From Promethearchaeati archaeon (GTDB lineage Archaea; Asgardarchaeota; Heimdallarchaeia; Heimdallarchaeales; Heimdallarchaeaceae): a stretch of DNA of 64,000 bases. The notes under the pieces were generated by a model. The model had not been told where the DNA came from. It was given only the letters and a program-made list of their open reading frames with translations, and did not search any database. The DNA is taken from positions 1 through 64,000 of the forward strand of contig JABLTJ010000010.1 in the NCBI GenBank assembly GCA_013166775.1. Direction: 5' to 3'. A program made the position numbers and the translations under genes. Positions 21,170-55,327 of the stretch are shown piece after piece; position 1 is the stretch's first letter, and each line of letters opens with the position of its first letter.

Positions 21170-21700
21170 GTGACAACAATTAGAAAACAAAGAATAATCA
21201 AAGACTACGAATCTTTGAGGAAACTCCATAAGGATGGGATAATAGGTCAAGTGAAAGCATATCCAAGTAAAAAGAAATCAATGTATCATTTAGCAGTAGG
21301 TTTCAAGGGACCAAAAGGAACTCCCTACGAAGGTGGAAAATACAAATTAGAGATTTTATTTGGTCCAAATTATCCTTACAAACCACCATTTGTAAGATTG
21401 CATACACCTATCTGGCATCCAAATTTCTGGCCTAATCCAAAAGAATATCCAAAGAAAAGAAATATCTGTTTAGCACTAGTAGATAATGAATTAATTGGAA
21501 AACATGATGGTTGGTCTCCAAGCAAAAATATTACAACAGTTATACATTCAATTTTGGCTATGTTTAATGTTGATGGTGCATATGTAAATCCAAAGGATGT
21601 CTTCAATAAAGATGCAGCACTTGAATTTCTCAAAGATAAGAAAAAATTCACGAAGAAAGCTCAGGGAATAAGTAAGAAGTATGCAAAGTCTTACTGGTAA
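21170..21700 (+). CDS. Ubiquitin-conjugating enzyme E2
   Basis: RI.KD helix, GPKGTPYEGG, YPYKPP, HPN, catalytic Cys in ICL, WSP. Confidence 0.95.
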   Translation: MTTIRKQRIIKDYESLRKLHKDGIIGQVKAYPSKKKSMYHLAVGFKGPKGTPYEGGKYKLEILFGPNYPYKPPFVRLHTPIWHPNFWPNPKEYPKKRNICLALVDNELIGKHDGWSPSKNITTVIHSILAMFNVDGAYVNPKDVFNKDAALEFLKDKKKFTKKAQGISKKYAKSYW

Positions 21701-21742: not shown

Positions 21743-22450
21743 ATGCATAACGATGAAGATAAGATTCCTGAGCAATACAAAGAATTATTGAAAAAAATTG
21801 AAGCTATTGAGAAAATCTTAGGTATGTCAGCAATAGATAAAATTGTTGAAGATATGGAAACTGAGAGTGAGATTGTTGTATCTGATGAGGACTTGTTAAT
21901 CACTCCAAGACCTGAAGTAACAATAAAACCTAAAGCCTATTTCAAATTAGCTAAACACGCATTAACATATGCAAATTCGAATATACCTAAGAGAGAGTGG
22001 GTTGAAATCATAGGTCTATTAACAGGGCAAATGGCTAAGGAAGGAACTCCTTTAGAACAAGTTATTGTAGATGACTATTGGCCTGTTGATCAAGGTGATG
22101 CGATAAGTGTTGAAATTGTGGATCAAAAAGTATTCACAGAAATCTTTCATAAAAAGGAATCCACCCAGTTCATAATTGGGTGGGCTCATTCACACCCTAG
22201 TTTTACACCTTTCTTGAGTGATGATGATTTTAGAACACATCTTAGGTATCAAACATTCTGGAACAAATCAATAGCACTAGTAATTGATCCTCTAATGATT
22301 TCTAGAGATGATTATGGTTTAGGTGTTTTTAGAATAGATGATGATAAACAATCCTACTATAAATTATCTATTGAAGTTGAAGGATTGAGCACTCAGGCTA
22401 GCTTTGAATCTATTGACTTATTCATGAAGAATGAAAAAGAGAATGACTAA
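21743..22450 (+). CDS. JAMM/MPN+ metalloprotease (Rpn11/CSN5-like)
   Basis: E(IIGLL)...GWAHSHP...S..D JAMM motif; ALVIDP. Confidence 0.93.
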   Translation: MHNDEDKIPEQYKELLKKIEAIEKILGMSAIDKIVEDMETESEIVVSDEDLLITPRPEVTIKPKAYFKLAKHALTYANSNIPKREWVEIIGLLTGQMAKEGTPLEQVIVDDYWPVDQGDAISVEIVDQKVFTEIFHKKESTQFIIGWAHSHPSFTPFLSDDDFRTHLRYQTFWNKSIALVIDPLMISRDDYGLGVFRIDDDKQSYYKLSIEVEGLSTQASFESIDLFMKNEKEND

Positions 22451-22479: not shown

Positions 22480-23622
22480 TTGGAATTGAATAATGTTAAA
22501 ACCTACTTAGCTATTGCAATTATCGGTAGTGTAGTTGGTTTTCTTTATCTGATAATTCAGAGAGAACAAGGTCTTCCAAAAACACTACTATTCTTTTACA
22601 TAACCTTGTATATCATCGCTTTTCTAAGATATGTTCTGGAAAGAAGACATTATAGAAAACATAAAGCTGTAACTGCTAGTACACAATTTCTAATCCTACC
22701 TTTCAGCGTCCTGTTCATGGGAAATTATATCTCACCATTTTCTAATTTTGTTGAGATTTTTGTAATCAATATTAATTTAGTTAGTGGAGATACTGTTCAT
22801 CTGTACTTCAACCTTATCTCTCTCTCTATGATTTTACCTTTGATAGTTTTATCTGTTCTTTTCAACAACTATTTCTCCGGAAAATGGCCAGCAATGGCTG
22901 TTAATAGAAAAATAAGACGAGGACGGCTTATTCCTTTCCTTCTTTTTACATTATTCGTCTTACTTCTGCTATTTGGTTTCTTTATAAATCTAAAAATGGA
23001 TTTTCTTAGTCTCTTCTTTGCTGTGATATACTTTGTGATGTTTATTGGATATTTCATAGTATCTCCCTTACAAAAATCAAGACAACGTACTGTTCAAAGA
23101 ACTCCTGCAGCTTCTACAAGAAGATCACCAACAAGAGCTTCTGCATCATCAAGACAACGTCCATCTACAACATCTACATCAACAAGAAGTAGGCGAAGTA
23201 CTTCTGCACAGACTAGTGGAAGAATTTCTTCTTCATCAGCTAGCAGAAGAAGAGCCGTAACCACAGCTCGAACTACTAGTGCAAAAATTGCCCCTGGAAA
23301 AGACATAACTACAACAAAGAAAGTAACTAGATCTACAACAGTAAGAAGAGGTACAAAGAATATTTTCCCTGTTGGAAGAGCTACTAAAGATGATTTAAAA
23401 TGTATTATCTGTTATATGGATTTCAAAAAATCTGAATCAAGAAAAGTAATTTTATGCCCACATTGTAAATATCCAGCTCATGCTGACGAATTCTTTAACT
23501 GGTTCCAACAATCAAAACTATGTGCAAGATGCAATAAACCCATTTCAACTAAGTATGTAAAATCTCCAATTTACAGAGTTAGTACAAAAGTATACATAGA
23601 AACTGTGATTGAGAAGATATAA
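22480..23622 (+). CDS. Multi-pass membrane protein with C-terminal RING-like domain (putative E3)
   Basis: ~6 TM, S/T/R-rich linker, CIIC-x14-CPHC-x4-H-x2-E..W..CARC. Confidence 0.8.
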   Translation: MELNNVKTYLAIAIIGSVVGFLYLIIQREQGLPKTLLFFYITLYIIAFLRYVLERRHYRKHKAVTASTQFLILPFSVLFMGNYISPFSNFVEIFVININLVSGDTVHLYFNLISLSMILPLIVLSVLFNNYFSGKWPAMAVNRKIRRGRLIPFLLFTLFVLLLLFGFFINLKMDFLSLFFAVIYFVMFIGYFIVSPLQKSRQRTVQRTPAASTRRSPTRASASSRQRPSTTSTSTRSRRSTSAQTSGRISSSSASRRRAVTTARTTSAKIAPGKDITTTKKVTRSTTVRRGTKNIFPVGRATKDDLKCIICYMDFKKSESRKVILCPHCKYPAHADEFFNWFQQSKLCARCNKPISTKYVKSPIYRVSTKVYIETVIEKI

Positions 23623-24399: not shown

Positions 24400-24993
24400 T
24401 TGGGAAAGAAAATGATTCCTCGCTGTGCTGTTTGTGGAAATCGAAGTGTTACTACTAAATATTTCAATTCTAGAACAAGGAAACTTTACTGTTCTAAAGA
24501 GTGTATGCAAATTTCAAATAGAAAGAGTTTTTTGTATGTTAGCATTTTCATGATAGTTGTAACACTTGCTGGTGGTATATCTGCGTTTATTCTTCTTAGA
24601 GAACAAGATCTAATATTATCTATTGCTCCACTCATTGTTATAGGTTTTGGTGTTCCTTTCAGTCTCTATCTATTTACTCAATATCTAAAAGGGAGACAAT
24701 TAGTAAAATCAAGAAGTATCGAATCTGAAAATATAATTTATTCATGCCTATTTTGTAATCATGAATATGAAAACAGGATTTTTGGAGCACCTACAATATG
24801 TCAAAAATGTGGAAAAGAATCTCCTTTTTGTGACATTTGTTATGAATATATATTTGCTGGAAAACCTGTCTACCAAATACAAAACTGTGGACACATATTC
24901 CATAAAACTGATCTCTTAGACTATCTTGAGAATGAAGAGACCTGTCCAAAATGTAAACAAGAAATAAGTTCGATTAACTTAAAAATCAAATAG
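24400..24993 (+). CDS. Two-TM protein with zinc fingers and C-terminal RING-H2 (putative E3)
   Basis: CAVC..CSKEC; 2 TM; CLFC..CQKC; CDIC-x15-CGHIFH-x2-D...CPKC. Confidence 0.85.
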   Translation: MGKKMIPRCAVCGNRSVTTKYFNSRTRKLYCSKECMQISNRKSFLYVSIFMIVVTLAGGISAFILLREQDLILSIAPLIVIGFGVPFSLYLFTQYLKGRQLVKSRSIESENIIYSCLFCNHEYENRIFGAPTICQKCGKESPFCDICYEYIFAGKPVYQIQNCGHIFHKTDLLDYLENEETCPKCKQEISSINLKIK

Positions 24994-25021: not shown

Positions 25022-25783
25022 CTATTTTGGTTTCTTCTGTTTAGGTTTCTTTTGTTCTGGTACTTTGTATCTCAAAGGTGTCTTCTGCTTTGGAATCTTT
25101 TGTAGAGGTTGTTTTTGTGCTGGGATTTTGGTTTTCTTAATCTCTTCTATTTCTCTGGTTACTGGTGTTTCCTTTTTCTTTTTCTCCTTTCTTTCTTCTT
25201 TCGGAGCTGGTCGCGATTCTTTACTTTTAAAATCAGAGAATTTTTCACTATCATTGATTGGAGGTGACCCCTCTTCTTTCTCCCTCTTTTCTTCTCTTGG
25301 AACTGATTTTGATTCTTTACCTTTAAAATCAGAGAATTTTTCGCTATCGTTTATTGGAGGTGGTGTTTCCTCTTTCACCTTCTTCTTAGGTGGTTCTTTG
25401 TCTGGAATATATTTAATGGGTTTTTTTTCTTTGAGTTTATCTTGCTTAGGAATTTTCGACTTGGGTATTTTTTGTTTTGGAATTCCTTTACTTCTACTCT
25501 TTGTTTGATTGAGCTTCTGTTGTGTAGGTTTTTTTTCAGTAATCTTGCTCTTGGGTATTCCTTTATTTCTTCTATCTGCATTCAAATCCTTAATTTCGGA
25601 CTTAGTGGGACTACTTATTTCTTTAGTTTGCTTCTGTTTTCTTGGTGGAACAATATATTCCTCTCTTATTTTGTGTTTAGGAGGAGTATCTTTAGGTATC
25701 TTTGTTTTTGGTATTTTTTCAGATGGGATTTTTTGTTTTGGTATTTTCGAGTTAACTCTTTTCTTCTCCTTTTTTCTTGCCAA
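25022..25783 (-). CDS. Lys/Pro-rich low-complexity repeat protein
   Basis: TTG start with GGTGG SD-like motif; many KIPK(Q/S/T) units; PPINDSEKFSDFK occurs twice. Confidence 0.75.
   Translation of the reverse strand: MARKKEKKRVNSKIPKQKIPSEKIPKTKIPKDTPPKHKIREEYIVPPRKQKQTKEISSPTKSEIKDLNADRRNKGIPKSKITEKKPTQQKLNQTKSRSKGIPKQKIPKSKIPKQDKLKEKKPIKYIPDKEPPKKKVKEETPPPINDSEKFSDFKGKESKSVPREEKREKEEGSPPINDSEKFSDFKSKESRPAPKEERKEKKKKETPVTREIEEIKKTKIPAQKQPLQKIPKQKTPLRYKVPEQKKPKQKKPK
25215..25362. repeat. Intragenic 52-bp direct repeat, 96-bp period
   Basis: 25215-25266 and 25311-25362 both encode PPINDSEKFSDFKxKES. Confidence 0.85.
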
Positions 25784-26010: not shown

Positions 26011-26367
26011 ATGAGCGAAGAATTTGAAGAATTATCCTTCGATGAAGAAGAGGAAGAAATTGAAGAAGTCGTTGAAGAAGAAATCGTATCAAAAACACCT
26101 TCAACTAAGACTCCAGCTGGAAAGAAAATAAGTGTTTATTTCCAAAGCACAATTGGACCAAGTCCAAAACAAGAAAAACTAGTAGTTGCAACTGATGCAC
26201 CTATTGATGATATAAAATACACTGTAAGTCAAATCTTTGGACTTCCACCTGAAGAATTTCATCTTTCTCATGCAGGAAGAACCTGTGATCCTGGCGATAC
26301 TTTTGAAGACTACGGTGTTGAAGACGGAGACACTGTATTACTAATACCCGTTTCTACAGCAGGATAA
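26011..26367 (+). CDS. Ubiquitin/SUMO-like modifier with acidic N-terminal extension
   Basis: Beta-grasp pattern ISVYFQ..LVV..PIDDIK..GLPPEE..L..AGR....T.EDYGVEDGDTVLL; ends in STAG. Confidence 0.9.
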   Translation: MSEEFEELSFDEEEEEIEEVVEEEIVSKTPSTKTPAGKKISVYFQSTIGPSPKQEKLVVATDAPIDDIKYTVSQIFGLPPEEFHLSHAGRTCDPGDTFEDYGVEDGDTVLLIPVSTAG

Positions 26368-26510: not shown

Positions 26511-27788
26511 ATGAGTGTAATCACAATGAATCAAGACACTAGAAAATCAAATAATTCAAACTTCTTCAGTGAAGCTCTTAGTTCAGTAGAAAGAGTAAGA
26601 TTTGATAGACAACTAAGACTTCCAGGTTGGAATCAGAAAGCTCTGAAAGATTCTACTGTTCTCATAGTAGGTGTAGGAGGATTGGGAACAGAAGTAGCAA
26701 AGAATCTAGCAATGGCAGGAGTAGGTGTTCTACATCTAATAGATTTAGACATCATTGAACATTCTAATCTTAATAGACAAATTTTATTTTATGATGCTGA
26801 GGAAGGAGAACCCAAATCAAAAGTTGCTGCTCGAACACTAAGAAAAATAAATCCTCATAGTAGGTATATTTGGCATTACTCAAATCTTGAAGATGTTGAT
26901 CCAGAGATATATGCGACAGCTGATTTATACATAGCTGGTCTAGATTCTGTAACAGCAAGGAATGAGCTAATACGTAGGGCTGTTCATTTTAAGAAACCAA
27001 TGATTGACGGAGGAACAGCAACATACTATGGGCATGTCTATACATATCTACCAGACGAAAATTCTTGTCTGCAATGTGATCCTCAAAGAGAAAGAGAGCG
27101 AGAAACTCTTGCAGCTTGTACTCTCGTAGGTGTTCCTAGAAAGAGATCTCACTGTTTGCTGAAGGGACAACTATTTTTTGAATCAAAGCATAATAGACCA
27201 CCAGATACAACTGTGGTAGATGAAGTGAAAATAGCTTTAGATTATGCTAATGATTTGGTAAAAGAACATTTTCCTGACTCAGGTTTATTCACTTTGGATG
27301 AGGCTGTAAAAATGATTGATCAACATGATCCAACGGTAATTTCAATTAATGCAGTAATAGCTTCAATCCAAACTCAAGAATCATTAAAACTATTACATCA
27401 TATTAAAGGAATTAAACTGGGGACAGTAAATCCAGAATATCTGATATACAATGGATTAGTAGGGAAGTTCTTCTATATAGAAAAACCACCCAACAAGGAA
27501 TGCCATCTATGTGGTTCAAATGCACCAATAATTGAAACTATTGAATTGCCTGATACATCTACACTAGACATGATACTGCCAATTATCAAGAACAGAGGAT
27601 ACACCTTTGATCCTGAGCTACTACCTAATTTCTGGCTAATGGATTTGAAAGAAATGAAAGAAGCGCAAAAAGGTTTTACTTTGAAAGAACAAAAAATAAG
27701 AAACTACGAAACAGTTTATGTGACCGGTCTCTCAAAAGATAACGAAGAAATTGATGTTTATTTACGGATTTTATTAAAGAGCAGATAG
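26511..27788 (+). CDS. Ubiquitin-like activating enzyme E1 (Uba2/Uba3-like)
   Basis: RFDRQ, GVGGLG, SNLNRQ, GLDS..AR, CLQC...CHLC zinc site, catalytic ACTLVGVPR...HC, C-terminal UFD-like segment. Confidence 0.93.
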   Translation: MSVITMNQDTRKSNNSNFFSEALSSVERVRFDRQLRLPGWNQKALKDSTVLIVGVGGLGTEVAKNLAMAGVGVLHLIDLDIIEHSNLNRQILFYDAEEGEPKSKVAARTLRKINPHSRYIWHYSNLEDVDPEIYATADLYIAGLDSVTARNELIRRAVHFKKPMIDGGTATYYGHVYTYLPDENSCLQCDPQRERERETLAACTLVGVPRKRSHCLLKGQLFFESKHNRPPDTTVVDEVKIALDYANDLVKEHFPDSGLFTLDEAVKMIDQHDPTVISINAVIASIQTQESLKLLHHIKGIKLGTVNPEYLIYNGLVGKFFYIEKPPNKECHLCGSNAPIIETIELPDTSTLDMILPIIKNRGYTFDPELLPNFWLMDLKEMKEAQKGFTLKEQKIRNYETVYVTGLSKDNEEIDVYLRILLKSR

Positions 27789-27806: not shown

Positions 27807-28715
27807 TTGTTGAGAAGACCTTCTCATAAAAAGAGAAAGATTAATAAATGCTTCTTTCTACCCCTAAATGTGCAAATAAAAAAACTTAGCAACTATAATC
27901 CTGATAAAGAAGTTGAAATAAATGTTAAGGATATGGTTGCATGGAATTTTATTAGAGTTGACAGATTTCTACAATATCTTAGGGACAACAGAAGGGAAAT
28001 ACTAGAAATTTTCATCACCAATCTAGAACAAAAGTACACTTCAGTAACTAGAACGAAATACAAACTATCAGATATAGATATTTTCACTGAAACTTTCGAG
28101 AAACTCCAAATAGTAAAGAACCATCCTAATCTTCTAGATTCAATCATTAATCTCGTTCTTTCAGCTCTAGAAATCACTTCTGATTTTAAATGGGAATCAT
28201 CTGTATTGAATGTCGCACAGATAACTACAAAGAGAGCTTGGTTAGATTCTCATATTTATTTCTCTGAGCTTCTTACAGAAATGCTAGATAGAGAAGAAGC
28301 GATAAATTTTCTTCGAAACTATTTTGTTTTTAATGTGAATGAATATGGAAACATAAAACAACATGAATCCTTACAATCTGGTTTTAAGTCAGATTATGAG
28401 AGTGGTAAAAGAGATGAGAACACAAAACTTGTTTCGATTTTACTAAATGAAGGTCTATATGCTACAAGAGTTGATATATGTATGTTATCTGAAGCATTGA
28501 AAGAATATCCTGATTCTGAAATCAAACATACAGTTTGTTGTTCTGCTGATCATGCTATAGTGAAAAAAGCAAATGAAAATTTTGTCTTGACAAGAACATC
28601 AACATTGATGAATGGTCCTTACTGTGATTTCTGCTGTCATGATACAAGAATCATGGAAAAGATTGAGCATCCTTCAAAGGAATTTTATGAAAAGCTTGGA
28701 GAAAGTGAAATTTAA
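27807..28715 (+). CDS. ATC-hydrolase/V4R-like family protein, copy 1 (likely start GTG 27870)
   Basis: DIC...CCSAD...LTRTSTLMNGPYCDF. Confidence 0.8.
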   Translation: MLRRPSHKKRKINKCFFLPLNVQIKKLSNYNPDKEVEINVKDMVAWNFIRVDRFLQYLRDNRREILEIFITNLEQKYTSVTRTKYKLSDIDIFTETFEKLQIVKNHPNLLDSIINLVLSALEITSDFKWESSVLNVAQITTKRAWLDSHIYFSELLTEMLDREEAINFLRNYFVFNVNEYGNIKQHESLQSGFKSDYESGKRDENTKLVSILLNEGLYATRVDICMLSEALKEYPDSEIKHTVCCSADHAIVKKANENFVLTRTSTLMNGPYCDFCCHDTRIMEKIEHPSKEFYEKLGESEI

Positions 28716-29050
28716 TGGCAAAAAAATACCCAGTAAAAATAACTATTGTAAGAAAATTCAGCTCAGAAGAAGTATTTGGGCATGAACACTACTATCCAGA
28801 TGGTAGAAAATCAACTCTATGTCCACATTTTGACGAAAATGAAGAAATAATCATCGATCATGCTTACATCGATTTACCATCTGATTGGCCTTGTTCATGG
28901 GCATGGATGGACTTATGGAAGGATTTATCAGTTTTATCCCTAGGAGGAGATTTTAGTCACACTGAACCTAGAATAACATATACAACCTGTAGGGATGGAA
29001 CCAAACCAGTTGTTTTCAAACTGGAAAGAATAGAAGAAGAGGAAGAATAA
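28715..29050 (+). CDS. TIGR04076-family small Cys protein
   Basis: CP..., C.WAW, C.DG..PVVFKLERI; start overlaps the upstream stop (TAATG). Confidence 0.85.
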   Translation: MAKKYPVKITIVRKFSSEEVFGHEHYYPDGRKSTLCPHFDENEEIIIDHAYIDLPSDWPCSWAWMDLWKDLSVLSLGGDFSHTEPRITYTTCRDGTKPVVFKLERIEEEEE

Positions 29051-29052
29051 TT

Positions 29053-29919
29053 ATGAAAATAGAGAATTATAAATGCTTTAGTTTGACAAAAAAAGAAAAA
29101 TTCACACCTGAAAATTTTATAAAAGTAAGACTTCAGAGAATTGATTTAGTTCTTAAAATCTTTAAATCAATCAAACCTGATGAATTGAACATTTATGTTT
29201 CAAATTTAAAAGATAAATTCAGCGAAATTGTTGTTGATTATAATTTTAATGTTGAAGCTTTTAATTGGGATTTCATAAGAGAAGAATTGACTATTTTACG
29301 AAATTTCCCTGATCTAGAAAGACTAATTTTTCTCTACGCTTGTATGACTGTAGATTTACCTGAAGATTATGTGAATGAACAGGGAGAAATAGAAGCTCCA
29401 TATTTTGACCTAAGAAAAACAGGAGAAAGAATCTCTTATTATATAGTAAGAACTTTGGTAGATACTTATGGAAAAGAAGAAGGTACTGAAATCTATAAAC
29501 AAATAGCTCCGGAAATTATCAGAGAGTATAGGGCTAAAGATCAACCAGAAGAACCCAAAGAGCCAAAAACTATTACAGTTGCAGAAAACAATAAGAAATA
29601 TGTAGAAGCATGGTGCAGAGTTGGTCTTGCAGATTTTACTTCTTGTTTAATTGATGATTATAAAGTAGTATATCGTTTTGACAGTTGCTTAACTCCAGAA
29701 GCTTTGAAAGACTTCAACGACCCAGATATTGCATACTTATGTTCATGTTACATAGCAGATATTCCAGAATTTAACGAGGGTAGAACAATTCATCTACGAA
29801 GAACTCAAACTTTACATCACGCTAAATTCTGTGATGAGTTCTATTGGAATAATTCAGTCTATCCTGATGCAGAACAACCATCTTTAGAGTTTACAGAAAA
29901 GATAGGAAAAGATTTGTGA
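29053..29919 (+). CDS. ATC-hydrolase/V4R-like family protein, copy 2
   Basis: FDSC...YLCSC...RRTQTL...FCDE. Confidence 0.82.
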   Translation: MKIENYKCFSLTKKEKFTPENFIKVRLQRIDLVLKIFKSIKPDELNIYVSNLKDKFSEIVVDYNFNVEAFNWDFIREELTILRNFPDLERLIFLYACMTVDLPEDYVNEQGEIEAPYFDLRKTGERISYYIVRTLVDTYGKEEGTEIYKQIAPEIIREYRAKDQPEEPKEPKTITVAENNKKYVEAWCRVGLADFTSCLIDDYKVVYRFDSCLTPEALKDFNDPDIAYLCSCYIADIPEFNEGRTIHLRRTQTLHHAKFCDEFYWNNSVYPDAEQPSLEFTEKIGKDL

Positions 29920-30806
29920 AAATAAAATCAGGTGCTAAGATGAAAATTACAACCCATGATTTTTTCAACAAAGAATCTAAAAGTGATATCAAGCTTAATG
30001 AGTTTATTAAGAAATGCTTTGAGCAAACTGATTCAGTAATTAAATATTTCAAAGAATTTAGAGAAAATAAATTAGATGAATATGTGTTTGCATTGCAGAA
30101 TAGATTAAAGAGTGAATTAAAAGAATCTCAATATAAAATAGATATTTTTAAACTCGATGAAATAGAAAAGAATCTTTCTTTACTCCATAATTATCCTGAA
30201 ATGGAAGAAACAATCATAAATTTTATCTGGAAGATATTAGATATCCCAAAAGATTTTGATACTCTAAATGAAAAATTCAATCTCTTATATTTCAACATCA
30301 GGAAAGCTGAAAGGCATCTATCTTACTATAGAGTAAAAGCTATTGAGGATCTATTAGGAAAAGAGGAATGCATAAAAGTATACAAGAATATTGTTGAATA
30401 TCTAATCAAAGAAATGAAAGAACAAGAATCTAGAGAACAACCAGAAGATCCAATGAAGGTAACACGAATTGAATCAAGGAAGTTTGTGCTCGAAAACTAT
30501 AAGAAACTTGGAGTTGGGGATTTTACGCTCGGAATCTATGATGATTACAAGGAAATATACCGATTCGATAGATGTATTGTGCATGAAGTTCTAAAGGACT
30601 TTAATGATCCAGATATCGCTTATCTTAGCTCTTGCTATTTAAGAGATTCACCAAGTAACAATGAAGGCTATATTATTCACATGAGAAAAACACAAACCTT
30701 GCATCATAACAAATTCTGTGACGAGTTTTATTGGAATAATTCTGTCTATCCTGATGCAGAACAACCATCATTGGAGTTTACTGAAAATATGGGGAAAGAT
30801 AAGTGA
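29916..30806 (+). CDS. ATC-hydrolase/V4R-like family protein, copy 3
   Basis: FDRC...YLSSC...KTQTL...FCDE. Confidence 0.82.
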   Translation: MKIKSGAKMKITTHDFFNKESKSDIKLNEFIKKCFEQTDSVIKYFKEFRENKLDEYVFALQNRLKSELKESQYKIDIFKLDEIEKNLSLLHNYPEMEETIINFIWKILDIPKDFDTLNEKFNLLYFNIRKAERHLSYYRVKAIEDLLGKEECIKVYKNIVEYLIKEMKEQESREQPEDPMKVTRIESRKFVLENYKKLGVGDFTLGIYDDYKEIYRFDRCIVHEVLKDFNDPDIAYLSSCYLRDSPSNNEGYIIHMRKTQTLHHNKFCDEFYWNNSVYPDAEQPSLEFTENMGKDK

Positions 30807-30830
30807 AAAAAAAAGAAGGAGTAAGATAAA

Positions 30831-31694
30831 ATGAAGAGTGAAAGTTACAAATGTTATAGTTTAACAAAGAAGGGAAATATGAAACCAATTGGTTTAATTC
30901 ATGCTAGGATGGAGAGAACAGATTTTGTTTTGCAATCTCTTCACAAACTCAAACCAGAGGATATGAACAAATATGTCTCTCATTTAACAGATAAATTGAG
31001 TGAAATTGTTGGTGATTATACATTTGAGATGAATGTTTTTGACTGGAATTTTATAAGAAAGGATTTGGAAATTCTTCCAAATTTTCCCCAATTAGAAAAA
31101 GCAATTTTCTATTGGTCATGCAAAACGTTAAAATTACCTGACAACTATAAATCGGATCAAGGAGAAATAGAGTTAGTATTTTTTGATGAAATCAAATCGA
31201 ATGAGAGATTATCGTACCATAGAGTAAAAACCTTTGTTGAAATCTATGGTGAAGATTTGGGAACAGAACTTTACAAGCAGATTGTACCAGAAGTGGTTAA
31301 AGCTCTAAAATCGAAGTATTTAGGAGAAAAACCTGCTGATCCTAAGTCAGTAAATATTCTAGTTTCGAATAAAAGATCAATTGAATCTTGGTGCAAAACT
31401 GGTTTAGCAGATTTTAGTTTTCATATTTTTGATGATTATAAAATTGTATACCGTTTTGACAGTTGTTTAACTCCAGAAGCATTAAAAGACTTCAAAGACC
31501 CAGATATTGCATACCTAGCTTCTTGTTACATAGGTGATGTACCTGAATGGAATAAGGATAAAATTATCCATCTTCGAAGAACACAGACTCTTCATCATGC
31601 TGAATTCTGTGACGAAATGTATTGGAATAATTTAGTTCATCCAGATGCAGAACAGCCATCTTTAGAATTTACAGAAAATATGGGTAAAGAATAA
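30831..31694 (+). CDS. ATC-hydrolase/V4R-like family protein, copy 4
   Basis: FDSC...YLASC...RRTQTL...FCDE. Confidence 0.82.
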   Translation: MKSESYKCYSLTKKGNMKPIGLIHARMERTDFVLQSLHKLKPEDMNKYVSHLTDKLSEIVGDYTFEMNVFDWNFIRKDLEILPNFPQLEKAIFYWSCKTLKLPDNYKSDQGEIELVFFDEIKSNERLSYHRVKTFVEIYGEDLGTELYKQIVPEVVKALKSKYLGEKPADPKSVNILVSNKRSIESWCKTGLADFSFHIFDDYKIVYRFDSCLTPEALKDFKDPDIAYLASCYIGDVPEWNKDKIIHLRRTQTLHHAEFCDEMYWNNLVHPDAEQPSLEFTENMGKE

Positions 31695-31723
31695 AATAAG
31701 TAGAAAAAAAGGAATGAATTAAA

Positions 31724-32587
31724 ATGAAAACAGAGAGTCATAAATGTTATAGTCTAACAAAGAAAGGAAATATTAATCCGAGTAATGTGATTAAAGAAAG
31801 GATGGAACGAACTGATTTAGTGATAAAGTTCTTCCACAAGTTAAAACCTGAGGATCTGAATCTATATATTAATACTCTAAAAGACAAATTAGATGAAATT
31901 GTGGGTGATTATGAATTCGATGAGAGTGCTTTCGACTGGGAGTTTTTAAGAGAAGGAAATGAAGTGCTTTCTGATTTTCCAGATTTTGAAAAAACAGTTT
32001 TTCTGTGGATCTGTAAAACACTTAAGATTCCTGATACCTATCATTCAGAAAAAGGAGCAATAGAACTAGTATATTTCGATGAAATCAAATCAAAAGCGAG
32101 GTTGCCATATTATAGAGTAAAAACTTTTGCTGAAATGTATGGTAAAGAGGAGGGAATAGAGATATACAAACAAGTTGTACAAGAAGTGATTAAAGCTCTA
32201 AAATCGAAGTATATGCCTCCAAAACCACCCAATCCAGAATCAATAACTATTCTAGCGTCTAATAAAGGTTCTATTGAATCTTGGCGTAGAATCGGTTTAG
32301 TGGATTTCACATACTGTATTTTCGATGATTTTAAGATAATTTACCGTTTTGATAATTGCTTAACTCCAGAAGCATTAAAAGATTTCAATGATCCTGATAT
32401 AGCCTATCTAGCTACCTGTTATATTGGTGATGCACCTGAATGGAATAAGGATAAAATCATTCATATGAGAAGAACACAAACTCTTCATCATGCTAAATTC
32501 TGTGATGAATTTTATTGGAACAACTATGTGCATCCAGATGCTGAACAACCATCATTAGAGTTTACAAGAAATATGGGGAAGGATTAG
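31724..32587 (+). CDS. ATC-hydrolase/V4R-like family protein, copy 5
   Basis: FDNC...YLATC...RRTQTL...FCDE. Confidence 0.82.
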   Translation: MKTESHKCYSLTKKGNINPSNVIKERMERTDLVIKFFHKLKPEDLNLYINTLKDKLDEIVGDYEFDESAFDWEFLREGNEVLSDFPDFEKTVFLWICKTLKIPDTYHSEKGAIELVYFDEIKSKARLPYYRVKTFAEMYGKEEGIEIYKQVVQEVIKALKSKYMPPKPPNPESITILASNKGSIESWRRIGLVDFTYCIFDDFKIIYRFDNCLTPEALKDFNDPDIAYLATCYIGDAPEWNKDKIIHMRRTQTLHHAKFCDEFYWNNYVHPDAEQPSLEFTRNMGKD

Positions 32588-32599
32588 GAGGAATAAGAA

Positions 32600-33472
32600 A
32601 TGGAAGTTTTTAGAACAGGCAAATATCATATAAGTGATCTTGATAATCTTCAAGAACTACAACCTTTGGAATATGCAAATAGAACTGTCTTAAAGAGATT
32701 GAATTATCTAATTGGATTCATTAAGAAAGAGAAACCTGAAATATTACAAAATTTCGTTACTAAACTAAATCTTAAACTTGTCAAGCTTCTGAATAAACCC
32801 TATGTTAATGAAGGGGATGACGAAGAAAAAATTGTAAGCAAAGATTTTATTCATCTGAAAGTTTTTCCAGAACTTTTATACAATTGCTTGAATTATTATC
32901 TTCAATTACTTAATATCGATACTTCAATGAACTGGAGTGAAGACAAAATCAAAATCCCAAACAGGAACTATATTCAATCTTTTCTTTATCATAGATATTA
33001 CAATGCTTTGGTTTTAACAGAGATATTGGAGAGAAATCTAGCTGTTCAGATTTTCAAAGATTATATTGATTCTTATGTTAAATCACAATCAACAGATTGG
33101 AGAAAATACGAGAACTTAGAAGAATTTAGGGAAGCTAGAATACCTAAGAAAGATGATCCACCTAACATAGGCTGGATTATTGTACAAGGAATTATTGAAA
33201 ATGGTAAATACCCTCAGAAAAAAATAACATGTATGTGGGCTGATGCTATCACAGATTTACCTGACACTGAATTAAAATATCTTGCAGCATGTTATGGAGA
33301 TTTTCAAGGATATAATAATAATAATGAGAATTTTGTATTAACAATGAGTCATACAATTGTTGAAGGATATCCTTATTGCGATTGTATTGTACATGATATA
33401 AGAGTAAACAAAGATCTAACACATCCACCAAAGGAATTTTTTGATAACATATGGCAATTGAAAGAAGATTGA
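32600..33472 (+). CDS. ATC-hydrolase/V4R-like family protein, copy 6
   Basis: TCMW...ACYGD...LTMSHTIVEGYPYCD. Confidence 0.82.
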   Translation: MEVFRTGKYHISDLDNLQELQPLEYANRTVLKRLNYLIGFIKKEKPEILQNFVTKLNLKLVKLLNKPYVNEGDDEEKIVSKDFIHLKVFPELLYNCLNYYLQLLNIDTSMNWSEDKIKIPNRNYIQSFLYHRYYNALVLTEILERNLAVQIFKDYIDSYVKSQSTDWRKYENLEEFREARIPKKDDPPNIGWIIVQGIIENGKYPQKKITCMWADAITDLPDTELKYLAACYGDFQGYNNNNENFVLTMSHTIVEGYPYCDCIVHDIRVNKDLTHPPKEFFDNIWQLKED

Positions 33473-33475
33473 AAT

Positions 33476-34369
33476 TTGCAAAAAAGAGGTGAAAAAATGG
33501 AGTTTGAAAAAATAGGCGTTTATAATCCAGATGCTTTGTATGCTTTACAGGAGATACAACCTCTGGAATTTGCACTGCGTTCACCAATTAAGCGTTTAGA
33601 TTTTATAATAGGCTTTCTTAAAAAAAGGAAACCAGAAATTGTAGAAGCTTATGTTAAAAAGCTTGAAGAAAAATACGGAAAATTGGCGACAAAATCATAC
33701 GTTGATCAATCTGATATTGATATTAAGAAAATGATATCGGATTTATCAAATCTAAAGGAGTTTCCTGATTTAGCGAAAAGAAGTCTAAATCTTTTTCTTA
33801 ACTTACTAGAGATTGAAGATAATACTGACTGGATCAAAGAAAAGACAAAAATCATTCAGAAGAATTATATTAAATCATTCTTGGGACCAAAATATTACAA
33901 CATTGAGAGCTTAGTGAATATAATTGAAAGAGAAGAAGCAGTTCAGTTATACAAGAATTATATTACTGAATTTATGATCGATTACTATAAAGATATGGAA
34001 GATAATGTAGAAGATCTAGATGCTTTTTGGAAAAAACGCTTCCAAAACTATGCGGAAGATGAATCAGATCATTGGGTTGTCATTCATAGTAAACCTAACA
34101 AAGGTAAACTGATTTACCGAAAAGATGTTTGTCTTTGGATTGATGCTATGGAGGATTTTACAGATACAGAGTTTAAATATCTAGTGTGCTGTTATGGTGA
34201 TTTTCAAGGAGCTAAAAGAGAGAATAAGCATTTCATATTAACAATGGATCATACAATTGCAAAAGGTGATCCTTTTTGTAGTTGTATTCTCCATGATACA
34301 AGGATCGATTGGGATCTAACACATCCCCCAAAAGAATTTTGGGATAGCATTTGGCCATTACAGGAATAG
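33476..34369 (+). CDS. ATC-hydrolase/V4R-like family protein, copy 7
   Basis: VCLW...CCYGD...LTMDHTIAKGDPFC. Confidence 0.82.
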   Translation: MQKRGEKMEFEKIGVYNPDALYALQEIQPLEFALRSPIKRLDFIIGFLKKRKPEIVEAYVKKLEEKYGKLATKSYVDQSDIDIKKMISDLSNLKEFPDLAKRSLNLFLNLLEIEDNTDWIKEKTKIIQKNYIKSFLGPKYYNIESLVNIIEREEAVQLYKNYITEFMIDYYKDMEDNVEDLDAFWKKRFQNYAEDESDHWVVIHSKPNKGKLIYRKDVCLWIDAMEDFTDTEFKYLVCCYGDFQGAKRENKHFILTMDHTIAKGDPFCSCILHDTRIDWDLTHPPKEFWDSIWPLQE

Positions 34370-46253: not shown

Positions 46254-49200
46254 TTGAGAATAATCTATGCTAAAATAATTGTAGTAGCAATTATGATTTC
46301 AAGCCCCCTCTTTTTACAAAATTTCAATAACGCTACACCATTTGATAATATACTATCTAATACATTATCAAATAATAACAATAGTTTAAATAATAAAACT
46401 AATGAGCTTGAACATTTGAAGCAATCTCCTTTTAGTTATACTCCCATAACTTCTCATTCCTCAGAAGGGGTTAACCTCAATGTTAGTGATAAAATATCTT
46501 TTTCTCACAGTTTCTCTTTAAATCTTGATTCTACGAATCACTATACCAATTCTTACTCTATTAACTCTTTTACTGGATATACTCCAGAGTTATTTTACAA
46601 TATAACTGACATCACTGCAATTCCTGAGTATTTCCCTGTAGAAACTTCTTGGGGAGGTTCAAATATAGAATTAGCATACAACCAGTATTTATCTATCCTT
46701 CAAGGTTTTGATGTTCCATGGGATTATGCGGAATTTGTTGGAGCGGATATTTATCTAGAAACAGTTGGGAGTGGTTCTCTAGGAAGTGTTGAACTTGAAT
46801 TGTGGTTGATAGAAGATGAAGGAGTATTTCCTGATATGAACAATCCAAATAATCTCTCTTTTGATTTTTCTGCTCCTTATACAAATGCAAATCCTGTCCC
46901 TTCAGCTGCTACAAACAATTTTACTTTTTATGATTTTAATGATACTATAATTCCTAAAGGAGATTATTTCATAGTAGCAAATTTATCAGTTGTAGATATA
47001 ACAGATCCAAGTCAAAGATTTGCATGGAACTACAAAACAGGTGTGCCGTATAATGGTAAAAGCTATCTTTGGGATCAATCTGCAACATGGCTGAATCGAA
47101 CAAACAATTATGATTTTCCATTAATTCCAAAATTGCTCCCGTTAGACATAAATAAAAATCCTAAGACATTCACAAACCCTGCAAGTGCTAATCTAACTGA
47201 TAACGGAAACCCAATAACAACTGTAAATCAATTAATATTAGGAACTGGAGCTCACGATCTTTCAACAAATCTGTCAATTTCAATTTCATTTAATAATAGT
47301 TATTCTTACTTAAGAACATATAATGGATTATCATCTTTCCATGCATGTAATTCTACATTTTTAGATTACAGCATTTATTGGAATATAAGCTGGAGTGTTG
47401 ACCAAATAGATTTTTCTCCTTATTCAAATCCCGAAAGAGAACATATACTGCTTTCTCCATCAGATTGGAATACAAGTTTTTATACAATATTAGTTAACAA
47501 TACTACTCCTACAGATATCACTCGAATATCCGCTGGTTATCTTATAGATTTAGATCTTCTTATACAGAACAAAAATTATTTTGCAGCAGATTTGAAATTG
47601 GATACAACGAGTCCAAATTATCTCTATAGCACTTGTAACACTAATGGAACTCTTGAAACAAATTCCTACCGTCTAGGTTATTGGACACCTATAAATATTA
47701 CTCATTCTTTGGGTGTAGAAGGTTCTTCAATTAACTGCGAAGTGTGTATTAAAGACATATCTCTTCTAGATATCTCCATGGGAGAACTAAATCTTTCAAT
47801 TTACAATCCAGAAGGAAATATTAATCCACTTAAAATTAATGGTTTTGATAACTTAACCTACATAGATACAAGTTTTTATTCCATAGTTGAATCAGATCAA
47901 ATATCTCCAGGAATTTATCAAGTAAGTACTGCTTTTGATCCTTCAGTTTATGGATCTGATCAACCTGGATATTGGACTCTTACTTATTTCTGGAATAATG
48001 GTACAGAAGTTGGATTCTTCTCAAGAAGAATATCTGTAAATATATATACTTCAGCATTGTTTGAGTGGCAAGTAACTCCTGATACTGATATTTGGACTTT
48101 TGATAATTCCGAAAAAATAAAAAGAATCTTTGGCGACACATTAAATGTTAGGGTCCGATGTTATAGTAAAACAGAACCTTTTTTCTCTGGAGAAGGAGTC
48201 TATATATCTAGCGCAAACGTAACCTATCAAACAAGTATGTTAGAAGAAGGTGAATTAACCTTTCTTGAACCATTCTACAGCTCTTCAATTCCCCTCCTTT
48301 ATGAACCAGGAGAGTATTATGTTATGTTATATGCAAGTGGGTTATTCCATGATTCTTCTTCTATTCAGATACCTGTAACGGTATATCATCAATTTTCGAT
48401 TGAAACATCTAAAACTGATTATTATCTAAATTTCAGTAATTCTGTAGGTATAAAGTTTCAGCTGAATGACATTTCAAATCTAAGTAAAATAATAACTCCC
48501 GATGATATAGTAATATCAATAAACAGCACTATTGTGAATTCCAATTATTATTCAAACAGTTCAATAAATGATCAAATCGAAATACTTCTTGATACGTCAT
48601 TTCTTGGGTTAGAAATAGGAATATATGAATTTGGAATAATGGTTTCAAAGAAATTCTTCTTAGAGGATTATAATCATGAAAATGAAACTGTATCGGTTTA
48701 TTTACATATTGAAGAAATTTCTTCCGTTGTAAATAATGTTAATTTTAATAATACTATCTATCATAACAATCAAACAATTATTTCCTTTAGCTACTATGAT
48801 ACAAATCATTCTGAGTTTATATCAGATGCATCTGTTTCAGTATATGCTGATATTAATGAATATGAAGTAATTTCAATCTATTCAAATAATGAAGCTTATT
48901 ATGTTTTACTTAGAATATATGAACCATCAGTTAATTCTTTGAATGTGTTTCTTAATGTTTCTAAAGCAGGATATTGCTCCATACTCAATCTACATCTAGC
49001 AACATTGAATATAAAACCTAATGAAATCATTTCCCCTACTAGTCCACCAAATCCTGCTTCTTTGATAGCTTTGATAATTGTTGTATCTATGATAATTATA
49101 ATTTCTGTATCAATAATTATTTTTATTCAAGTAAAACGAAAGAAAAAAAAGAGATTAGTTAAAACACAAATTGAATTAGAACGTGCTAGAAATATTTTTC

Positions 49201-49823
49201 AAAGCGTTATCTTAACGAAAAAAATACTGATTGTTCATCATCAAACAAGCTTACCAGTTTTTTATCTTGATTTAGAAGCTAAAAGTGAACTAGATTCTGC
49301 ACTTGTTTCTGGAATTCTTGAAGCGATTTCTTCAATAGGAACTGAAATTTCTGGATCACCATCTGGTATTAAGAAGATAGAATATTATGATTTTGAAGTT
49401 TCTAGGGCTTATAGCGGTGCTTTTGCAATCTATCTATTTTCGGATAATCTTGTATGCAATGAAATATTTGATGGTTTATCTAACATAATTAATTGGTTTG
49501 ACATTACCTTTAGTCATCAATCTGTGGGATGGGATGGATCGATGAATATTTTTACAGAATTCCAAGAGTTAATTGAAGAGAAAATCTCTGAAGAAATTTA
49601 CCTATGGTTATTATATTCCATTGAACTCTCTTCGGAAGGGTTAGATTTTTCTAGAAAGCTTTCAAAAATTGATAAGGAAATTATCGGTTTTCTAACTACT
49701 AATGGAAAAACTTCTGTAGCTGTGATTCTTGATAGATTAGAAAAATACGAGAAAGAAGAAATTTTAGTAGCTCTTTTCATTTTATTTGAGGAGGGAAGAA
49801 TAGTTGGAGAAGAATCTCTATAG
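46254..49823 (+). CDS. Large single-pass surface protein with cytoplasmic longin-like and winged-helix domains
   Basis: Signal-like N-terminus, ~900-aa beta-rich region with many N-x-S/T sequons, one TM then KRKKKKR, then KKILIVHH.TSLP...SGILEAISSIG.E. Confidence 0.8.
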   Translation: MRIIYAKIIVVAIMISSPLFLQNFNNATPFDNILSNTLSNNNNSLNNKTNELEHLKQSPFSYTPITSHSSEGVNLNVSDKISFSHSFSLNLDSTNHYTNSYSINSFTGYTPELFYNITDITAIPEYFPVETSWGGSNIELAYNQYLSILQGFDVPWDYAEFVGADIYLETVGSGSLGSVELELWLIEDEGVFPDMNNPNNLSFDFSAPYTNANPVPSAATNNFTFYDFNDTIIPKGDYFIVANLSVVDITDPSQRFAWNYKTGVPYNGKSYLWDQSATWLNRTNNYDFPLIPKLLPLDINKNPKTFTNPASANLTDNGNPITTVNQLILGTGAHDLSTNLSISISFNNSYSYLRTYNGLSSFHACNSTFLDYSIYWNISWSVDQIDFSPYSNPEREHILLSPSDWNTSFYTILVNNTTPTDITRISAGYLIDLDLLIQNKNYFAADLKLDTTSPNYLYSTCNTNGTLETNSYRLGYWTPINITHSLGVEGSSINCEVCIKDISLLDISMGELNLSIYNPEGNINPLKINGFDNLTYIDTSFYSIVESDQISPGIYQVSTAFDPSVYGSDQPGYWTLTYFWNNGTEVGFFSRRISVNIYTSALFEWQVTPDTDIWTFDNSEKIKRIFGDTLNVRVRCYSKTEPFFSGEGVYISSANVTYQTSMLEEGELTFLEPFYSSSIPLLYEPGEYYVMLYASGLFHDSSSIQIPVTVYHQFSIETSKTDYYLNFSNSVGIKFQLNDISNLSKIITPDDIVISINSTIVNSNYYSNSSINDQIEILLDTSFLGLEIGIYEFGIMVSKKFFLEDYNHENETVSVYLHIEEISSVVNNVNFNNTIYHNNQTIISFSYYDTNHSEFISDASVSVYADINEYEVISIYSNNEAYYVLLRIYEPSVNSLNVFLNVSKAGYCSILNLHLATLNIKPNEIISPTSPPNPASLIALIIVVSMIIIISVSIIIFIQVKRKKKKRLVKTQIELERARNIFQSVILTKKILIVHHQTSLPVFYLDLEAKSELDSALVSGILEAISSIGTEISGSPSGIKKIEYYDFEVSRAYSGAFAIYLFSDNLVCNEIFDGLSNIINWFDITFSHQSVGWDGSMNIFTEFQELIEEKISEEIYLWLLYSIELSSEGLDFSRKLSKIDKEIIGFLTTNGKTSVAVILDRLEKYEKEEILVALFILFEEGRIVGEESL

Positions 49824-54700: not shown

Positions 54701-55327
54701 ATTTTCCAAAGTACTATGATGATCAAGAAAGTTATTGTAGTTCATCATGAAACCAGTCTCCCAATTTTCGAAAAGGATGTAGATAAAAATGCAATTGTTG
54801 ATCCATCAATTATAACAGGTGTACTGCAGGCTATCTCTTCTATTGGCACAGAAATGATAGGTGCCCCAACAGGTGTGAAAAAAATAGAATATTATGGTTT
54901 TGTCGTAACAAGTGCCTATAGTGGAGCTTACACAGTTTATGTGTTCTCTGAAACTGAAATAGAACCTGAATTTGAAACAGGTGTTGATAATATTGCAAGG
55001 TGGTTTGACTTAATTTTTGGTTATGATAGTGCTCAATGGGATGGTTCAATGGACATTTACAATGAATATAGAATCTCGATTGAGGAAAAAATTTCTGAAG
55101 AGTTATTTTTATGGATGCTATTTCCTATTCATGTTCCAGATAAAGAAATGGACTTAAATATTCTGAATCAAGTAGAAAAGGAAATCTTAGAAGCAATTAC
55201 TCAAAACGCAAATATGACTGTAATTAAATTAGTCGATCAGTTAGATAAATACGATAGTGAGGAAGTAATTTATCATCTTTTTAATCTTGTAGATTCTGAA
55301 CACATAATAACAAGCTATACAGATTAA
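51752..55327 (+). CDS. Large single-pass surface protein with cytoplasmic longin-like and winged-helix domains
   Basis: Full-length paralog of 46254 (QGF.V.WDYA.F.GADIYL, LGYWT, W.NGTEVG.FS); TM followed by RRR and the same cytoplasmic module. Confidence 0.8.
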   Translation: MMTHFMFKNEIISKILTLIIISLLILVYLPQNSILDDNKSFSSELLDNSKQEGFENYENDYLKNRPFSFAYTPIDNLTGTGDNLVVTDELAVSHSVSLSLTSGNGYSDSYTISGISGFTNQNLEYDLSISSRRDDYIILESSIDNKNADLDSNQVRVAQGFEVYWDYAVFYGADIYLDATGSTLGNDQLELFVVKADGLGQPNMSDIRAIDLNGPYNSSNTIPASSTGNYAYYDFTNISLSGNAILENGNYFIVANLSSYDVSADNFFWVGEQGGSETYPNYLHDGTSWSLPNDETRDLIVDLKPSYSNGTSLVFTDPTDVSLQDNAQAVTSLTQQITSTGLHTITSDTSIDISMNNSYLFSNVLSCIATYYADNSTYPNYDISWEIIWNIPQVDLLSYSNPVRNHYILAPSDWSNTVFSLSLNDIPITVLRNLAGYECDIQILYSGSEYLEGDFKLQTSSPNYVTNTEISDGVQVTNEFTLGYWTTDTIDAFGHEGSSVFVEVGINDILQSGGILNFTLFNSDGNIIPWKNSSLLPANLNYIDTSYYSGLGYFDPGENVFKHNISIDPSISESDKEGQWTAFVLWQNGTEVGLFSSSIVIGKPTLAEFAWEDTLGQNDMTNDTMIELTRINGHGIHIEVDYYNISDPFFSGIGTPITHAIVNYTASWGDSGSLPFVDTQYVLDIITDAPTGVYTINLIASGPFLETQSIQISVRIVHQFEISPVRNSYAVNYTNEVTAIFELRDISFGNVLVEPDSIVLKFNGSTLSVADYTYSFDNQRIKITIDTGDILGLSLTPDSYTLLVSAIKTDFVSDYGIDTAVDSTTIVVTTIHTHIAIEETVTETDSNSQISVTFRFVDLNHSVDIEGASVDVRFDIDEIELVSWNENNGLYTLLIRINEPSIATLNVFIDIYKTGYQSQMNFLLSSVSINLPTNGGGIPLGVLIGIIAGIAVVILATVGYFVFRRRMQATKDVRLKSRSRARAIFQSTMMIKKVIVVHHETSLPIFEKDVDKNAIVDPSIITGVLQAISSIGTEMIGAPTGVKKIEYYGFVVTSAYSGAYTVYVFSETEIEPEFETGVDNIARWFDLIFGYDSAQWDGSMDIYNEYRISIEEKISEELFLWMLFPIHVPDKEMDLNILNQVEKEILEAITQNANMTVIKLVDQLDKYDSEEVIYHLFNLVDSEHIITSYTD

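Follow-up and report, generated by a model that had tools for sequence, protein, structure and literature searches.

A ubiquitin-like protein ending in Ala-Gly as the probable tag of a second conjugation cascade in a Heimdall-group archaeon

The window (the whole 64,000 nt stretch of DNA analysed here) carries a short ORF for a protein with a ubiquitin-like (Ubl) core that ends in Ala-Gly, and the question raised by this locus is what kind of modifier, if any, the protein might be. The initial annotation described it as intermediate between ubiquitin and SUMO, and as a candidate for a proto-SUMO-like or novel modifier class. In the current study it is read as the tag of a second, self-contained Asgard ubiquitin-like conjugation cascade, existing beside the ubiquitin system of Gly-Gly (G-G) type; comparison of the encoded sequences makes this reading probable.

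The ORF runs from ATG to TAA, with a GAGGT element 8–12 nt upstream of the start. It encodes 118 aa, all of the motifs originally quoted from it lie where they were said to lie, and Ala-Gly directly precedes the stop codon. Its parts are:

26011..26367, + strand: Ala-Gly ubiquitin-like modifier, 118 aa (arm 1–37, beta-grasp core 38–113, tail end Ala117-Gly118)
26011..26121, + strand: disordered N-terminal arm of the tag, with F-[DE]-[DE]-(x)-hydrophobic, an acidic run and two K-T-P motifs
26347..26367, + strand: reactive tail P113-V-S-T-A-G118 plus stop; V114 is at the position of ubiquitin Arg72 and A117 at that of Gly75

The AlphaFold2 model of the tag gives a beta-grasp core (about residues 38/39–113) at pLDDT of around 90, and the N-terminal extension of some 37 residues noticed at the outset is borne out by low-confidence block values of 44–65. 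The match to PF00240 scores 28.6 bits (cut-off 25.4). Fold searches returned Caldiarchaeum ubiquitin (CsUb; first in Foldseek), ubiquitin and ISG15 as the top matches, with SUMO entries ranking below the ubiquitins, within about 2 Z units, so that the fold alone cannot discriminate between them. The only returns from the ESM Atlas were archaeal ubiquitin clusters with automatic names. In an ungapped alignment, Ile44, Lys48, Lys63, Arg72 and Gly75 of ubiquitin correspond to Ser86, Arg90, Asp105, Val114 and Ala117 of the tag. Neither hallmark of ubiquitin proper, Arg72 or the C-terminal G-G, is thus present, and the hydrophobic Ile44 patch, Lys48 and Lys63 of eukaryotic ubiquitin have no equivalents, Ser86 being invariant across the family alignment; the residue of CsUb itself at the Ile44 position is Thr. 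Since these surfaces are absent, readers of ordinary ubiquitin, such as the ESCRT-I UEV domain, would probably ignore the tag. A scan for promoters, using a bacterial model on archaeal DNA, found sites no commoner than in shuffled sequence.

A protein identical to the tag is encoded in a Candidatus Heimdallarchaeota MAG, which assigns the host to the Heimdall group of Asgard archaea. A homologue search recovered 91 proteins; with these, and with A117 and G118 invariant in the 64-row family alignment, the ORF is not a chance one. A profile search (E below 1e-13) detected the family in 122 of the 300 Asgard genomes covered, a count that represents 131 matches minus nine weak ones, and its named records cover the Heimdall, Kari, Hod, Promethe/Loki and Hermod groups; no relatives were found among the viral contigs searched. 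In an 80-column unrooted tree the family forms one clade across the Heimdall and Loki groups (support 91/81). The tail P-x-S-x-A-G is present in 185 of 187 distinct family sequences; 107 of these tails stop at the Gly, while 78 have residues beyond it. Head-to-tail precursors of two and three Ubl units also exist, and translate from their contigs. Extended tails and tandem precursors together mark the Gly as the reactive end that is conserved, and imply that many relatives must be trimmed. The suggestion that no maturation is needed consequently holds for the window copy, the Gly of which is exposed at the stop, but not for the family, and the further suggestion that the JAMM enzyme acts only as a deconjugase is contradicted at family level by the same tails and precursors. 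Orthologues with a G-G end or without the terminal Gly, named at the outset as evidence against an Ala-Gly class, were looked for, and G-G occurs in none of the 185 tails. Of the two labels offered for the protein, that of a distinct class with a conserved Ala-Gly end can be kept, but not that of a proto-SUMO (see below).

The Ubl domain of this family is also found in other settings. A number of larger proteins (P0127, P0129, P0139, P0141–P0143, P0148, P0179, P0185) end in it with the Ala-Gly intact, their N-terminal parts including Roadblock-like, HerA-like ATPase, CDC48_N plus VWA, and CxxC-H domains; judged by their termini, these could be conjugated whole. A Loki-group paralogue of about 264 aa (L044:6178-6972, – strand, and some 24 Loki-group loci) is hydrophobic in its N-terminal part, carries a domain of the Ala-Gly Ubl family at the C-terminal side, and sits between two conjugatable tag copies, beside a winged-helix protein. 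It lacks Ala-Gly, has a basic C-terminal end and is membrane-anchored, which indicates that the domain has non-conjugated uses as well. In the large Asgard family coded f11, none of 76 genomes matched the Ala-Gly tag and none of 17 matched PF00240, which fits the lack of ubiquitin in Thorarchaeota reported in PMC9192718.

The neighbourhood of the tag contains genes for an E2, a JAMM protease, a membrane RING protein, a second membrane protein, a second RING protein, a Lys/Pro-rich protein and an E1, all of which, with the tag, lie within 6.6 kb:

21170..21700, + strand: E2 conjugating enzyme (PF00179, 95 bits), with an HPN motif and a Cys downstream of it
21743..22450, + strand: JAMM/Rpn11-like metalloprotease with an intact E...H-S-H-x7-S-x2-D
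22480..23622, + strand: multi-pass membrane protein with a C-terminal RING variant, at least five predicted helices
23705..24292, + strand: membrane protein without a RING, conserved in 19 Heimdall-group loci
24400..24993, + strand: two-helix membrane RING protein, at this place in one of 80 related loci
25022..25783, – strand: Lys/Pro-rich low-complexity protein with 10 K-[TIVA]-P motifs, conserved in 19 loci
26511..27788, + strand: dedicated E1, 425 aa, UBA3/UBA2-like, with an adenylation domain, two CxxC, catalytic Cys203 and a C-terminal beta-rich UFD-like domain

A Ubl, an E1 with a catalytic Cys and a C-terminal Ubl-like domain, an E2 with its Cys, a RING protein and a JAMM protease, the components that define archaeal operons of this kind, are therefore found in one cluster. 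The JAMM protein is the probable maturase and deconjugase, the multi-pass RING protein is the probable E3, and the Lys/Pro-rich protein is a candidate substrate or scaffold. The RING of the multi-pass protein has Glu at the sixth ligand position in all 39 orthologues, and its scores fall under the Pfam cut-offs. The two-helix RING protein, found in a single locus of the 80, is no core part of the cluster. Over the same 80 loci synteny was observed for E1 in 52, for E2 and JAMM in 41 each and for the membrane RING in 39. Where genes are missing, the locus is in many cases a short contig or an extra tag copy located elsewhere. The neighbours of Ala-Gly tags always match the paralogues of the window best, and never the other E1, E2 or JAMM of the genome. 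Both searches covered 38 genomes, and in every one of these tag and E1 (about 420 aa) are jointly present (30) or jointly absent (8), although the genomes are related and incomplete, so that the co-occurrence is no independent statistic.

An ordinary ubiquitin, ending in G-G-F, is encoded beside a 335-aa E1 on another contig of the same genome, and the second E2 and second JAMM also lie on contigs other than that of the tag cluster. The genome as a whole therefore has two complete tag/E1 pairs, one Ala-Gly and one G-G. A third E1-like gene (G000 C45:5784-6107) is cut at a contig end and shows 52% identity to the window E1 over 86 residues, and the G-G ubiquitin and its E1 are followed by a 469-aa ORF (G000 C27:8750-10159, – strand), the start of which resembles an E2/UEV-type domain.

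The E1 of the cluster differs from that of the G-G system. Its Cys203 lies in a motif, C-T-x4-P-R-x3-H-C, that aligns to the identical motif of UBA3 and is found in 49 of 50 Ala-Gly loci, but in none of 21 G-G-type E1s, none of nine UFM1-type E1s, and not in the Caldiarchaeum E1. Whole-protein scores of the window E1 are between 163 and 170 bits over UBA1, UBA2 and UBA3 (UBA3 170, UBA2 166), against 82 for UBA5, and Foldseek likewise gives a tie between UBA3, UBA2 and UBA1. A search of the PDB with the Cys domain alone found no relative, which leaves the motif and the whole-protein alignments as the basis of the likeness to UBA3. An ancestry of this domain shared with UBA3 is accordingly put forward as a lead; where the catalytic-Cys domain of UBA1, UBA2 and UBA3 comes from was called unresolved in a 2024 review (PMC11354881).

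The position that discriminates ubiquitin from NEDD8 is of particular relevance here. Residue 72 acts as the gate: Asn574 and Gln576 of Uba1 accept Arg72, whereas Asn188 and Arg190 of Uba3 reject it, without making contact to Ala72 (PMC3731359). The corresponding columns of the window E1 hold His175 and Tyr177, both invariant in 16 aligned orthologues, with Tyr177 at the column of UBA3 Arg190. Tyr occupies this column in all 49 Ala-Gly E1s, whereas the Caldiarchaeum E1 and all 17 G-G loci have Gln there. On the side of the tag, position 72 is V, A, I, F or H in all 185 Ala-Gly tags and never Arg, compared with Arg in all 19 G-G ubiquitins. This co-variation, an alignment argument drawn from two clades of related members, is a sign of an insulated cascade, by which the Ala-Gly system would be kept apart from the G-G system. 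A model of the complex of E1 and tag scored 0.80 (best control 0.00), a mark reached by 58 of 80 solved pairs and two of 110 mismatched pairs; the runs agreed in at least 97% of contacts, with a partner pLDDT of at least 91. Such a textbook pair may pass by its likeness to solved E1-Ubl structures. The tail of the tag is threaded along E1 residues 167–175 in the model, where His175 is named at the interface and Tyr177 is not. The penultimate residue would also have consequences, as NEDD8 with Gly75 changed to Ser loads on its E1 but transfers poorly to E2 (PMC3731359), which implies that an Ala at this position needs an adapted E2.

It is the combination of a ubiquitin-fold tag, an invariant Gly, extended and tandem precursors, a co-occurring E1, and a linked E2, JAMM and membrane RING protein with intact catalytic motifs that argues for a second cascade. 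Archaeal operons with E1, E2, RING and JAMM genes for a ubiquitin-like protein were reportedly described by Nunoura in 2011. The operon of Caldiarchaeum subterraneum, as presented in PMC5654768 and PMC6043591, comprises CsUb, the E1-like Csub_C1476, an E2, a small RING protein and CsRpn11. It shares with the tag system a ubiquitin-fold tag, a single-chain UBA3-like E1 whose C-terminal domain is ubiquitin-like, a canonical E2, a RING protein and a JAMM protease, which in Caldiarchaeum matures the precursor. CsUb, however, ends in R-T-V-G-G, while the tag ends in S-T-A-G and has a 37-aa arm; the gate residue of the Caldiarchaeum E1 is Gln, and the Cys motif is missing from that enzyme; and the RING partner of the tag is a multi-pass membrane protein instead of a small RING protein. 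By analogy with the reconstituted Caldiarchaeum cascade, the JAMM would cut after Ala-Gly where needed and later remove the tag, the E1 would adenylate Gly118 and take the tag on Cys203, and the tag would then pass to the E2 and, with the membrane RING, onto lysines at the cytoplasmic face of the membrane. Insulation would be provided by Val or Ala in the tag where ubiquitin has Arg72, and by His/Tyr in the E1 where ubiquitin E1s have Asn or Asp/Gln.

In the arm of the tag, the motif F-[DE]-[DE]-(x)-hydrophobic is present in 174 of 178 family members and K-T-P in 160 of them. Compared with shuffled sequences, K-[TIVA]-P was counted 171 times in arms (5.5 in shuffles), 140 times in the Heimdall neighbour (19) and 95 times in the Loki coiled-coil neighbour (4.7), counts that overstate the enrichment as the sequences within each group are related. 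The motif thus recurs in two unrelated neighbours, the Lys/Pro-rich protein of the Heimdall group, whose 10 copies in the window are the most of any ORF in the genome, and the coiled-coil protein of the Loki group. The latter (L044:4385-5521, – strand, and 20 loci) is 340–385 aa long with K-[TI]-P at both ends, the last copy resembling the motif in the arm of the tag. As a signature of substrates genome-wide, K-T-P was rejected, being without enrichment in this genome (30 ORFs against about 19 expected). That K-[TI]-P supplies the acceptor Lys, with the arms building chains and the K-[TI]-P-rich neighbours serving as substrates, is a guess from motif recurrence; it is possible but on the doubtful side, and the most speculative step of the scheme. 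In that event the tag could work like SUMO without being SUMO. A role of K-T-P as a docking or binding site, or as a phosphorylation site, could fit as well.

Other explanations differ in how they account for these data. The tag could be a duplicate of ordinary archaeal ubiquitin that shares the G-G enzymes and readers, Ala-Gly being a neutral variant; its best sequence and fold matches are indeed ubiquitins, and ubiquitin E1 tolerates some changes of Gly75 (PMC3731359), but the cluster has its own E1, E2 and JAMM paralogues throughout, the Ser at the Ile44 position is invariant, Arg72 is missing, the E1 gate co-varies, and the family is one clade over the Heimdall and Loki groups (91/81), all of which makes a simple duplicate improbable. 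Still less credible is a sulfur carrier of the ThiS/MoaD/Urm1 type, thiocarboxylated and not conjugated: the E1 belongs to the ThiF/MoeB superfamily, and four of 64 members gave weak ThiS matches, but the catalytic Cys of this E1 is invariant, its C-terminal domain is UFD-like, an E2 and a RING protein are linked to it, and no rhodanese, MoaE or ThiG was recognised among conserved neighbours (sequences read by eye, few of them scanned). Such a role had been named beforehand as contrary evidence; no pointer to it was found, nor was the arrangement of a G-G end with a minimal MoeB/ThiF-type E1 and no E2. A proto-SUMO, i.e. an archaeal sister or ancestor of eukaryotic SUMO with arm and Thr inherited from the common ancestor, is more in the spirit of the initial annotation, but the traits cited for it prove to be general. 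The 'SUMO-like' G-V-E-D-G-D belongs to a pattern, G-[VILM]-[EMD]-x-G-D, also present in five of 19 distinct Asgard G-G ubiquitins, and Thr at the 'SUMO position' (–3) occurs in six of the 19. The flexible extension before a beta-grasp core, present in the model of the tag, is not specific to SUMO either, although like that of SUMO it holds a conserved Lys. An intermediate place between ubiquitin and SUMO is at odds with the score of the tag core against the SUMO-like Pfam model PF11976 (23.2 bits, under the cut-off), as the genome's own ubiquitin scores 42.4, and with profile comparisons, in which the Ala-Gly family scores 53 to Asgard ubiquitin, 47 to eukaryote-type ubiquitin, 34 to the Asgard UFM1-like family (see below), 29 to SUMO and 17 to UFM1, while Asgard ubiquitin scores 58 to SUMO. 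The Ubl phylogeny originally recommended as a check groups SUMO with the G-G ubiquitins (99/89), apart from the Ala-Gly family, in a tree of 80 columns with six SUMO rows, long branches and no root. In favour of a proto-SUMO, an AU test did not reject a union of the family with SUMO (p=0.14; 80 columns), although the six distinct SUMO sequences, derived from one pattern-found seed, make this a weak test in both directions. The window E1 is also nearly as close to UBA2 as to UBA3 (166 and 170 bits, tied in Foldseek), while the G-G E1 of the genome scores lower on UBA2 (80 bits) than on UBA3 (126 bits), and UBA2 was the top PHYRE2 match of the C-terminal domain of the AB_125 E1 orthologue in PMC5654768. 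Against it, the tails have no Gln at –4 and hence nothing of the SUMO end Q-x-G-G; the window E2 matches UBE2R, UBE2B and UBE2L3 above Ubc9 (UBE2R2 62 bits, Ubc9 56); and the cluster has a JAMM instead of a Ulp/SENP protease. Nothing supports a specific tie of the tag to SUMO, and proto-SUMO, rejected as the best reading on the Pfam control, profile comparison and tree, is very unlikely.

An ancestry nearer to UFM1 has more to be said for it. The tag may be an early offshoot from ubiquitin towards UFM1, sister of an Asgard UFM1-like family plus UFM1, with a common single-Gly tail. The I-P-x4-G spacing is identical to that of UFM1, which also shares the single terminal Gly and a membrane-linked context; of the non-UFM families, the Ala-Gly one comes closest to the Asgard UFM1-like proteins (profile score 34 against 21–27); and in the tree it lies between ubiquitin plus SUMO (99/89) and the UFM1 group (98/90), a union with UFM1 alone not being rejected by the AU test (p=0.17). 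Direct profile matches to UFM1, however, have a probability of just 3–8%, none of 64 members matches PF03671, and the E1 is far from UBA5 (82 against 170 bits). Another Asgard family, whose E1s are UBA5-like, gives a match to eukaryotic UFM1 at a profile probability of 94%, with UFM1 first from the PDB, and occurs together with the Ala-Gly family in 13 genomes; the tree is unrooted, with long branches and 80 columns to draw on. UFM1 does not appear among the 50 matches listed in either of two fold searches, though it may rank lower. This reading is unlikely, and as it concerns ancestry it is compatible with the mechanism proposed for the second cascade.

That other family was reached from a PF03671 search of the 300 Asgard genomes, which gave nothing over the cut-off and mostly chance matches below it, and with its recognition as the true UFM1 match the idea that the tag is itself the Asgard UFM1, plausible at first sight and in view of PMC12962969, was rejected. 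It is distinct from the Ala-Gly family, is present in 35 of 300 genomes (E below 1e-10; loci L224–L263, for example L232:1402-1668, L230:1507-1767 and L224:1501-1812), and was not found in the genome of the window, which is 89% complete. Several members adjoin a ThiF-family E1 (UBA5-like by eye), a JAMM gene and a weak E2-like ORF, and such gene clusters may be undescribed so far. Ufm1 homologues are reported in nine Asgard clades in PMC12962969; the UFM1-like family probably corresponds to these, and the Ufm1 profile used there may have gathered some Ala-Gly proteins as well.

Returning to the second cascade, its genes have appeared in earlier records. The orthologues in Heimdallarchaeota AB_125 are OLS32357.1 (E1) and the adjacent OLS32358.1 (tag; HeimAB125_09790, 'hypothetical protein'). 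Hennell James et al. (2017; PMC5654768) sort archaeal ubiquitin clusters I–III by E1 and E2 trees, and their Supplementary Table 2B includes OLS32357.1. In locus numbering, the cluster JAMM (HeimAB125_09830) is followed by HeimAB125_09840, which PMC9192718 gives as one of two E2s that bear the Cys. The cluster was thus already catalogued in the 2017 study, via its E1, probably as a Cluster II; the passages of that study covered here make no mention of the Ala-Gly tag, its arm, insulation from the G-G system, the membrane RING or bench work on the cluster. Within the text of openly available literature, no description of an Ala-Gly tag or of its separation from the G-G system was found. Asgard G-G ubiquitin (HeimAB125_14240), a binder of the ESCRT-I UEV domain (PMC9192718), is the closest family by profile and is present in the same genome as the tag. 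Both have an S-[TA]-I-G loop after the first strand, but the former has Arg72, G-G and, at the Ile44 position, a hydrophobic residue needed for UEV binding, where the tag has Val, Ala-Gly and Ser.

That one prokaryotic genome has two tag/E1 pairs, with different residues at the known gate between ubiquitin and NEDD8, bears on the way in which a single ubiquitin cascade gave rise to several that do not cross (ubiquitin, NEDD8, SUMO, UFM1), and suggests parallel tagging pathways before eukaryotes. NEDD8 and UBA3 resemble the tag and its E1 in the combination of a small residue at 72 with a bulky residue at the gate, and UBA3 is the top E1 match of the window E1, including the motif around the catalytic Cys. 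NEDD8 differs from the tag by its G-G end, the lack of an arm, its dependence on the APPBP1 subunit and its cullin targets. Given its membrane RING partner, the Ala-Gly system would be a candidate for early tagging of membrane proteins. A wider scenario can be drawn, with three insulated Asgard cascades (G-G, Ala-Gly and UFM1-like), an Ala-Gly E1 that is the archaeal sister of the catalytic-Cys domain and residue-72 gating of UBA1/UBA2/UBA3, and a tag placed on K-[TI]-P sites with chains on the arm, a functional counterpart of SUMO or NEDD8 that was later lost or replaced in eukaryotes; taken as a whole, this would be a long shot.

Directly after the E1, the window holds a tandem run of about seven similar ORFs of 287–302 aa (nt 27807–34369), the first of which matches PF14196 (ATC hydrolase family). 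Two further ORFs of about 1190 aa each are located at nt 46254–49823 and nt 51752–55327.
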